40,846 nt of DNA. It comes from a virus (lineage: Duplodnaviria; Heunggongvirae; Uroviricota; Caudoviricetes). The notes beneath the pieces are model-generated. The model had not been told where the DNA came from. It saw nothing but the letters and a program-made list of their open reading frames with translations, and did no database searches. The stretch lies in the IMG/VR virus record IMGVR_UViG_2630968414_000015, one strand, 5' to 3'. This document shows, piece by piece, positions 893 to 1,085 of the stretch (positions are counted from its first letter, which is position 1; the number at the start of each line of letters is the position of its first letter). The position numbers were made by a program, and so were the translations under genes.

Positions 893-929
893 GACCGCAT
901 AACCTCCTGCTTTGTTGTTGATGCCTTTC

Positions 930-1085
930 TCATGCAATCGATCGACAAAAACGATCGATTCGATTTGTTTAATTGATACAACAAATAGATTGAAAAGTCA
1001 TCAACAATGATTCAGGGAGGTGATTATTTACTTAAAGAAAACGAAGAGTTAGGTGGTGAAAACGATCATAAAATGATCATTTTAT
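930..1085 (-). promoter_or_regulatory. com-mom upstream control region with clustered GATC palindromes
   Basis: AT-rich non-coding DNA upstream of com with GATC at 950-953, 963-966, 1064-1067 and 1075-1078, inside palindromes TCGATCGA and ATAAAATGATCATTTTAT. Mu mom is controlled by Dam methylation of upstream GATC sites (OxyR) and by activator C. Confidence 0.45.

Follow-up and report, generated by a model that had tools for sequence, protein, structure and literature searches.

A stretch of viral DNA of 40,846 nucleotides (IMG/VR record IMGVR_UViG_2630968414_000015; hereafter the window, meaning the whole stretch) is the Mu-like prophage Sp18 of Escherichia coli O157 Sakai, read from its right end and in reverse orientation, with its transposase genes near 37–40 kb. 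The subject of this work is the control region that precedes com and mom, the two genes at the start of the window, which overlap at 692–738 and form one unit 3′ of that region. RefSeq makes the same call for the com start at 892, and in Sakai Sp18 the genes of the region carry the names ECs_4998 (mom), ECs_4997 and ECs_4996. In bacteriophage Mu, the mom promoter (Pmom) comprises three GATC sites that are bound by OxyR when unmethylated, a C box, and a weak −35 element, 19-bp spacer and −10 element (TAAGAT), followed by com and mom. This control of mom by Dam and OxyR is a textbook case that, to our knowledge, is known essentially from Mu alone. E. coli encodes both Dam and OxyR. A preliminary description of the window had suggested that two pairs of GATC sites upstream of com, each embedded in a palindrome, place com-mom under the same epigenetic control.

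GATC does not occur in positions 1–939 of the window; it is found at 940–943, 953–956, 1064–1067 and 1075–1078, with a fifth site at 1110–1113. The two pairs lie 48–64 bp (proximal pair) and 172–186 bp (distal pair) upstream of the com ATG, a range that had been given as 60–190 bp; the distal pair had been located correctly at 1064/1075, and the proximal pair, at 940/953, had been put at 950/963, which is 10 bp off. The palindromes are real around the sites at 940, 953 and 1075. In particular, TCGATCGA occupies 938–945, the site at 953 sits within CGATCG (952–957), and the proximal sites jointly form an inverted repeat with 9-bp arms, AATCGATCG-N7-CGATCGATT (936–960), while the perfect 18-bp palindrome ATAAAATGATCATTTTAT (1068–1085) holds only the site at 1075 and leaves that at 1064 just outside. 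The palindromic context that had been pointed out is not new, in that CGATCG arms are the form of an OxyR half-site with two Dam sites and are also present in agn43 and gtr. GATC is under-represented in the window (133 observed versus 159 expected), and the number of sites in the pre-specified 221 bp upstream of com has a Poisson p of 9e-4. The 18-bp palindrome is the longest in the window, and its length was reached in 16% of Markov-1 simulations. No other cluster in the window is as dense as these five sites in 174 bp, yet 24% of random placements yield one. By density alone, the GATC cluster exceeds chance weakly; it is not significant window-wide, and we rejected it as evidence. Because the density is unimpressive, the case must rest on comparison, and it is because the proximal pair is conserved that it stands above chance. 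The features of the region are collected in Table 1.

Table 1. Features of the com-mom control region and related genes of the window (com reads on the minus strand)
Feature	Positions	Strand	Details
mom	1–738	−	245 aa, Mom family adenine-modification protein; Pfam PF25680 Mom, E 4e-77; ECs_4998
com	692–892	−	66 aa, Com zinc-ribbon translational regulator; Pfam PF10122 Zn_ribbon_Com, E 1.9e-12
com Shine-Dalgarno sequence, GGAGG	903–907	−	read from the sequence
Most likely com-mom promoter zone (candidate)	918–945	−	−35-like TCGATC (945–940, overlaps GATC 940), degenerate extended −10 TGAGAAAGG (932–924), CATCAA (923–918)
OxyR-type half-site II, ATCG-N7-CGAT	941–955		holds GATC 940–943 and 953–956; within inverted repeat 936–960; 7/10 versus ATAGnTnnnAnCTAT
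OxyR-type half-site I	963–977		minus strand ATCAATTAAACAAAT; 22 bp from half-site II; 6/10 match; GATC-free
Further overlapping OxyR tetramer matches	972–1008		972–1008, 14/20; 950–986 and 954–990, 13/20
Alternative promoter candidate	973–1001	−	ATGACT (1001–996), 17-bp spacer, TATCAA (978–973)
Mu Pmom look-alike	1029–1057	−	ACCACC (1057–1052), 17-bp T-rich spacer, TAAGTA (1034–1029); anti-Shine-Dalgarno ACCTCC 1020–1015
Distal GATC pair and 18-bp palindrome ATAAAATGATCATTTTAT	1064–1085		GATC 1064–1067 and 1075–1078, 11-bp spacing; palindrome 1068–1085
Divergent sigma-70 promoter, TTGACT-16-TAGGAT	1085–1113	+	points away from com; GATC 1110–1113 overlaps −10 end
Intrinsic terminator hairpin and T-tract	1164–1193	− (com strand)	13-bp stem, then TCACTTTTAT
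Sole Mor/C-family activator gene	30622–31047	−	141 aa; Pfam Mor, E 2.8e-32; between gemA and lysozyme gene

The proximal pair has the form gATCG-N7-CGATc, that is, the OxyR dimer consensus ATAGnTnnnAnCTAT with a Dam site in each arm, and its sites at 940 and 953 are the single GATC pair of the window with a 13-bp spacing. Beside this half-site (half-site II), at the canonical N7 spacing, lies a GATC-free half-site I of modest match quality, whose score equals that of the corresponding half-sites of Mu and agn43. At half-site I, TATC (975–978) occupies the position that GATC-I has in relatives, and the half-site aligns with the GATC-I-bearing half-sites GATCGTTAAAACAAAT of an Edwardsiella locus (L008; L numbers are our own locus designations) and GATCGGTTAAACAAAT of L096. 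The putative operator is therefore to be described as one with two GATCs (940 and 953) and not as the three-GATC cluster of Mu. We scanned both strands of the whole window with a 37-bp OxyR tetramer consensus containing the canonical N7 spacer, and all matches of at least 13/20 lay in 941–1008; in the same scan the known agn43 site scored 14 and the Mu site 13. With a spacer of N16, the top match, at 14/20, was the one with 972–986 as second half-site.

Comparison with operators whose function is established points in the same direction. The core of the proximal pair, ATCGATCGTTTTTGTCGATCGAT, is identical at 21 of 23 positions to the GATC-II/III segment of agn43 (flu) from E. coli K-12, ATCGATCGTTTATATCGATCGAT, a score reached by 4/2000 shuffles, and the two loci have in common the core ATCGATCGTTT.T.TCGATCGAT, the 13-bp spacing of GATC-II and GATC-III and the host species. 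The GATCs of agn43 are spaced by 19 and 13 bp (418, 437 and 450 of L088) and lie at +1, +20 and +33 of the annotated isrC/agn43 start, and in both loci the operator would be at or after the promoter, not far upstream of it. Unlike the window, agn43 has three GATCs and a good −10 element (TAGAAT) directly upstream of GATC-I; the window has lost GATC-I and has no comparable −10 before its operator. When the operators of Mu and agn43 were aligned with each other, the score was reached by 0/2000 shuffles.

Mu itself has a spacing of 13 bp between GATC2 and GATC3. The window shares with it this 13-bp pair in OxyR half-site form, ATCAATTAA just upstream of the pair, the overlap of com and mom in one operon, a phage gene for a C-like activator and an E. 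coli host with Dam and OxyR. Nevertheless, the arrangement is not the same as that of Mu, as had been proposed. The window operator has two GATCs (the first having become TATC) where Mu has three; its half-sites are 22 bp apart, whereas GATC1 and GATC2 of Mu are separated by 18 bp; the GATC nearest to the com ATG is at 51 bp here and at 78 bp in Mu; neither a C box nor TAAGAT lies between operator and com; and the window operator would lie over or just after the promoter, whereas that of Mu lies 50–90 bp upstream with the C box between. At the level of DNA, similarity to Mu is limited to the mom coding region (~71% identity in a blastn comparison of 1–2600 with phages), and a stringent local alignment of the window to the upstream DNA of Mu yielded an 11-mer only.

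A closer parallel in geometry is the gtr operon of P22, where GATC1/2 lie at −110/−97 and GATC3/4 at −46/−33, each pair within one OxyR half-site, and where OxyR binding is abolished by Dam methylation (PMC2909390). There are three such half-sites, A, B and C, with GATC pairs in A and C, and OxyR(BC) represses while OxyR(AB) activates (PMC2909390). We confirmed the half-site sequences ATCGGTAACAACGAT and ATCGCTTGTATCGAT in the P22 sequence, in which the gtr promoter reads TCGATC-17-TACACT. Both loci contain gATCG-N7-CGATc with two GATCs 13 bp apart and a GATC-free half-site beside it, and in both the GATC-bearing half-site adjoins or covers a −35-like TCGATC, and the promoter, which is predicted in the case of the window, follows closely; with the predicted com-mom start at ~911, the GATCs of the window would fall at −45/−32, as compared with −46/−33 in gtr. 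The window differs in having only one GATC-bearing OxyR half-site, in a half-site spacing of N7 (or N16) instead of N17, and in its target, which is a phage late/anti-restriction operon here and an O-antigen modification operon in gtr. No alternation of the A/C kind is evident in the window, because the distal pair has an 11-bp spacing and no OxyR match.

The proximal pair is also conserved with mom. We surveyed 80 mom loci from species-representative genomes (16 from Enterobacterales and 64 from other taxa), taking up to 350 bp upstream of mom, and found a 13-bp GATC pair in 8/16 of the Enterobacterales loci versus 0/64 of the others. Within the Enterobacterales loci there were 8 such pairs in 5.6 kb upstream of mom versus 2 in 75.6 kb of flanking DNA. 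In a comparison across genera, the GATCs are fixed and the 9 nt between them vary; the half-site has T at position 6, which belongs to neither GATC, in 15/16 sequences, in agreement with the OxyR consensus; and GATCGTTTTTGTCGATC is invariant in all variants examined from E. coli and from IMG/VR viral contigs, with both flanks varying. Of the three ancestral GATCs, two are always kept, and the one that is lost differs between lineages: GATC-I has become TATC in the Sp18 group, and GATC-III has become CATC in one Salmonella group. That group is of the Mu type (L141, L142, L157, L167 and L091, in which it is the third operator GATC that reads CATC). CATC is the substitution used experimentally in gtr, where it removes the Dam site and leaves the OxyR consensus untouched.

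These observations bear on the simplest alternative, namely that the GATCs have no regulatory meaning and that the inverted repeats are RNA hairpins, terminators or products of chance in AT-rich intergenic DNA. Indeed, a scan statistic over the whole window gives the GATC cluster no significance (p ~0.24), 936–960 is listed as terminator-like on the plus strand in a terminator scan, and OxyR scores of 14 are found elsewhere with control spacers. However, the ~50-fold enrichment of the 13-bp pair upstream of mom in Enterobacterales, with none in other taxa, and the fixation of the GATCs amid varying intervening nucleotides, where a hairpin constraint alone would predict otherwise, both argue against it, as do the near-identity of the core to an experimentally defined operator and the fact that nothing upstream on the plus strand needs terminating there. 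We regard this explanation as very unlikely.

Placing the operator relative to com reveals two layouts among mom loci. In the Mu-type layout (Mu, D108-like contigs, L010, L011, L023, L052, L093 and L098), GATC-18-GATC-13-GATC is followed by a C box (TTATGCCCCAATAA or CCATAACC-like) and then by a −10 such as TAAGAT, and in most of these loci the last GATC is ~71–83 bp from the com ATG. In the second layout, GATC-III is 51–57 bp from the com ATG and there is no C box between them; its members are the Edwardsiella locus, L096, Salmonella loci L089, L127 and L128, L129, com-less loci of Symbiopectobacterium type, and the E. coli lineages Sp18, JE86, M18 and L092. The second-layout loci from outside E. 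coli have clear −10 elements (TATACT, TATAGT, TGnTAGATT and TGnTAGGTT) 12–19 nt after the G of GATC-III, followed by a local anti-Shine-Dalgarno sequence; therefore, the GATC-bearing half-site would cover the −35 element or spacer there, like the repressing OxyR(BC) site of gtr. In six com-less loci (L012, L014, L168, L170, L173 and L174), GATC-31-GATC-13-GATC lies 15–20 bp before the mom ATG; because the operator directly precedes that ATG and com is missing, mom would be regulated in these loci without the Com translational step.

In the window, the distance between the operator (at GATC 940) and the com ATG is 47 bp, which leaves no room for a complete promoter between the two. These 47 bp contain no C box, an element that is present between operator and −10 in L093, L098, L099 and Mu; the sequence TTAT-N6-ATAA has no match in the whole window; and CATAAYCCC (with at most one mismatch) was found neither on the com strand upstream of com nor at any place assignable to a late-promoter gap. 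The upstream limit for a com-mom promoter is set by the intrinsic terminator listed in Table 1, the hairpin of which is kept, with a changed stem sequence, in L092 and L089. Within this limit, the zone overlapping half-site II is the most likely place for the promoter. From it we predict a start at ~917–911 and a leader of 19–25 nt, compared with ~22 nt inferred for Mu from its −10. All E. coli variants have (C/T)ATCA(A/T) 16 nt from GATC-III (TATCAT or TATCAA in sister lineages), and a 6-bp insertion further downstream in one variant has left this distance unchanged. The Shine-Dalgarno sequence of com is likewise kept across the variants examined, with one exception that reads GAAGG. A second candidate, further upstream, has hexamers (ATGACT and TATCAA) that are kept, with a varying spacer, in the window, JE86 and L092; its TATCAA, which has no T at the last position, overlaps half-site I and may be conserved for that reason. 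Next to com there is no weak promoter of Mu type, with a T-run and TAAGAT, and the look-alike at 1057–1029 is not conserved. Bound OxyR would hinder transcription under any of these three candidates.

Taken together, these comparisons make it probable, in our judgement, that the region consists of a Dam-sensitive OxyR operator for com-mom (941–977) and an unrelated distal element (1064–1085). In particular, the operator would comprise the GATC-free half-site (963–977) and the half-site with a Dam site in each arm (941–955). OxyR would bind when both GATCs are unmethylated, and perhaps also when they are hemimethylated; since the operator is predicted to overlap the −35 element and spacer of a weak promoter in the 47 bp before com, bound OxyR would keep RNA polymerase off, whereas full Dam methylation would exclude OxyR and allow transcription. 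This would be the logic of Mu mom in a different geometry, with the operator on the promoter as in the OxyR(BC) complex of P22 gtr and in agn43. The proposal of Mu-like epigenetic control thus holds for the proximal pair, which, by its 13-bp spacing, half-site form, agn43-like core and conservation across genera, is the counterpart of the Pmom operator of Mu; it does not hold for the two pairs as one control unit. From the sequence we infer OxyR binding, sensitivity to methylation, the position of the promoter and any role of the single C-like activator.

Several points weigh against this interpretation. Control spacers of 6, 8 or 17 in the OxyR consensus also score 14 elsewhere in the window, and the region is AT-rich; the consensus scan is therefore supportive only. 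The relatives in the survey share ancestry, so that its counts are not independent events. In the Sp18 lineage, the sequence homologous to the −10 of relatives is degenerate (GAAAGG), and CATCAA matches at only 3/6 positions; because of this, the assignment of the promoter is weak, and the operon might have little expression or depend on a promoter at another place. If the promoter were one of the two upstream candidates (1001–973 or 1057–1029), the operator would lie at −11 to +25 or at +45 to +82, and would be repressive by a different route. Finally, the distal palindrome could still bind the C-like activator.

The last point belongs to an alternative in which both GATC pairs are parts of one Mu-like region. 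According to this alternative, the single C-like protein binds the palindrome or a site close to it and activates a promoter ACCACC-17-TAAGTA (1057–1029) with a start at ~1022, and the transcript begins with a 130-nt structured leader that contains the proximal GATC hairpin and whose 5′ anti-Shine-Dalgarno sequence masks the com ribosome-binding site. When the region was aligned with the mom regulatory region of Mu, as had been advised, the gapped alignment score for 1125–1015 against the gin end and Pmom was 21.9 versus 14.0 ± 2.3 (3/1000 shuffles); the promoter-only part was not significant (96/2000 shuffles). The window and Mu share CTGTATAAAA, ACCAC-CT-AAC and a stretch of 13 nt before TAAG; the palindrome is unique in the window; RNA from 1024–886 folds at −42.8 kcal/mol (z = −4.8), with ACCUCC pairing to the GGAGGU of the com Shine-Dalgarno sequence; and L089, L096 and L129 also have an anti-Shine-Dalgarno sequence right after the −10. 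However, both hexamers are changed in M18, which retains the operator and com-mom, and the whole segment is missing in L092, in JE86 and in ~30/285 E. coli copies. Among near-identical variants the anti-Shine-Dalgarno sequence itself varies (cacctccc, caccgccc, cacctacc and caccgcta) with no compensating change in the Shine-Dalgarno sequence. The palindrome would be centred at about −54.5, in contrast to about −42.5 for the C box of Mu (with the Mu start inferred from its −10), and TTAT-N6-ATAA is, as noted, absent. We therefore think this alternative unlikely. A long structured leader with a 5′ anti-Shine-Dalgarno sequence was rejected as a conserved feature, because that sequence mutates among variants without compensation and the hexamers are not kept in M18.

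The distal pair has no OxyR half-site above 6/10 and is absent from close relatives that retain the operator and com-mom. In L092, an E. coli locus whose Mom is 86% identical, 1005–1160 are missing and the terminator hairpin runs straight into GGATGACTTT... and the operator; the JE86 lineage diverges fully beyond ~988; M18 has GAGT for GATC 1064 and a decayed palindrome, and has kept the operator and com-mom; and Salmonella L089 has unrelated sequence in place of the distal segment. Among complete E. coli genomes, the operator segment is present at 285 places and the distal segment at 255. What is conserved beside the palindrome is the divergent promoter, which, with diverged spacers, reads TTGACT-16-TACGAT in M18 and TTGACG-16-TATAAT in Salmonella L089. 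On these sequence comparisons, we do not count the distal pair as part of com-mom control and take it to belong to the divergent unit beside it or to be a relic that is not essential; the pair and its palindrome would be a lineage-specific segment at the −35 element of a conserved promoter that reads away from com into a variable cargo gene.

A more specific proposal, compatible with our preferred reading of the proximal operator, is that the distal palindrome and its GATCs are the operator of the divergent plus-strand promoter (1085–1112), bound by some dimeric regulator and with no role in com-mom; in a variant of it, the Dam sites at 1064, 1075 and 1110, the last in the −10, couple the divergent promoter to replication. 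The last base of the palindrome is also the first of the −35 TTGACT, M18 and Salmonella L089 retain the promoter hexamers amid diverging spacers, the GATC overlapping the −10 is kept in M18 (TACGATC), and the 185-nt leader downstream is strongly structured (z = −6.0). On the other hand, L089 has the promoter without palindrome or GATC and the palindrome of M18 is degraded, so that the distal element is dispensable for the divergent promoter; ~16% of simulated windows contain, by chance alone, a perfect palindrome as long as this one; and no candidate binding protein was identified. We take this proposal seriously without holding it to be probable. A Fur box was tried as an identity for the palindrome and rejected, since it was not among the top matches. 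A search of Rfam with 600–2200 returned sub-threshold chance matches only, and a search of other late-gene upstream regions for further copies of the 18-bp palindrome, of ATTTGTT-N10-AACAAAT or of TGACTTTT, aimed at a site for the C-like protein, gave nothing convincing.

That the sites fall into two groups, not one, also invites comparison with Lrp/Dam switches of the pap type, in which case the groups would be alternative Lrp-protected sites ~110–135 bp apart and the operon would flip between ON and OFF. The sequence GATCGTTTT, which may loosely resemble the pap GATC-box, is repeated on the minus strand at 956–948 and 1067–1059, 111 bp apart. Switches of the pap family, however, have two single GATCs 102–103 bp apart inside Lrp sites and a PapI-like co-regulator. 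The spacings between the GATC groups of the window are 111–135 bp, none of the neighbouring genes examined is PapI- or PapB-like, relatives lack the distal group, and the proximal group fits OxyR and not Lrp. We give hardly any credence to a pap-type switch.

If a Dam-sensitive OxyR operator precedes com-mom as proposed, its methylation-sensitive core, a single OxyR half-site with two GATCs at a 13-bp spacing, would be a module conserved with mom across Enterobacterales, in at least two architectures: the Mu type, upstream of a C box, and a second type, on the promoter like the operators of the phase-variable switches agn43 and gtr, in Sp18 and its Salmonella and Edwardsiella relatives. Setting the distal element apart averts an over-reading of the eye-catching 18-bp Dam-site palindrome as part of mom control. 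The com-mom region is 100% identical in 233/5426 complete E. coli genomes, many of them enterohaemorrhagic E. coli (EHEC) and including Sp18 of O157:H7 Sakai, and our results raise the question of whether epigenetic gating governs the toxic DNA-modification operon of this widespread EHEC prophage, and whether its expression differs between lysogens. A bolder extension, which we consider rather improbable, is that the Sp18-type layout, having lost the C box and made the OxyR/Dam operator part of the promoter, renders com-mom a bistable switch in the style of agn43 and gtr that is not strictly C-dependent. If that were true, Mom expression would be heritable in a fraction of EHEC lysogens, whose DNA would be methylcarbamoylated and resistant to restriction, and the prophage would encode phase-variable DNA hypermodification. 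In a literature search we found no paper mentioning ECs4996–4998, and the methylome papers that it returned do not cover the com-mom locus.

The preliminary description was right that there is a single Mor/C-family activator: the window has one Pfam Mor match, and tblastn with Mu Mor, Mu C and the protein of the window revealed no second copy. This protein is 39% identical to Mu C and 26% identical to Mu Mor, and its gene stands where Mu has mor, three small genes and C. Motif searches of the window defined no binding site for the C-like protein, and C-dependence of the com-mom promoter is unsupported by any recognisable site. Upstream of the activator gene, on the minus strand at 31048–31116, a GC-rich dyad, ATCCCGC-N5-GCGGGAT, precedes a T-run and TAAACT; it can be read both as a terminator following gemA and as a possible activator-dependent middle or late promoter.

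Unlike in Mu, gin is not adjacent to com, and genes for DUF6645, DUF1378 and DUF826 proteins and the small divergent cassette intervene. This cargo cassette (1085–1512) lies between com and the DUF826 gene and consists of the divergent promoter, its structured leader and an open reading frame (ORF) at 1304–1471 for a 55-aa zinc-ribbon protein (CPAC..CPAC), with a bidirectional terminator hairpin at 1469–1512. The cargo ORF varies among lineages (175 aa in M18, 86 aa in JE86 and 101 aa in Salmonella L089), and L092 lacks the cassette altogether. A minus-strand promoter-like sequence, TTTACA-18-TAGGAT (1269–1240), shared with Salmonella L089, is directed into the terminator hairpin at 1193–1164; the predicted product, an antisense RNA of ~80 nt against the cargo leader (1152–1269, minus strand; fold z = −3.6), would be reminiscent of type I toxin-antitoxin control. 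The annotated 154-aa hypothetical protein (1007–1471, plus strand; ECs_4996; phrog_26524) is marked as frameshifted in the near-identical prophages L006 and L007. Because its N-terminal two thirds overlap the promoter and leader, this ORF is probably over-called, and at most the C-terminal 55 aa are real. Further into the window, an IS66-family element (~2600–5000; ORFs 2638–3039, 3036–3383 and 3433–4971) splits the DUF6645 gene, which is uninterrupted, at 2040 bp, in strain E2855 and in Sakai Sp18. Lastly, on the minus strand at 1090–1115, GTGATCCTACCTTCACTGTATAAAA resembles the 3′ end of Mu gin (GTGGCCCTGTCAACTCTGTATAAAA; ..LSTLYKK) and may be left over from a gin-Pmom junction in a Mu-like ancestor, although the prophage has its actual invertase gene at 6709–7269.

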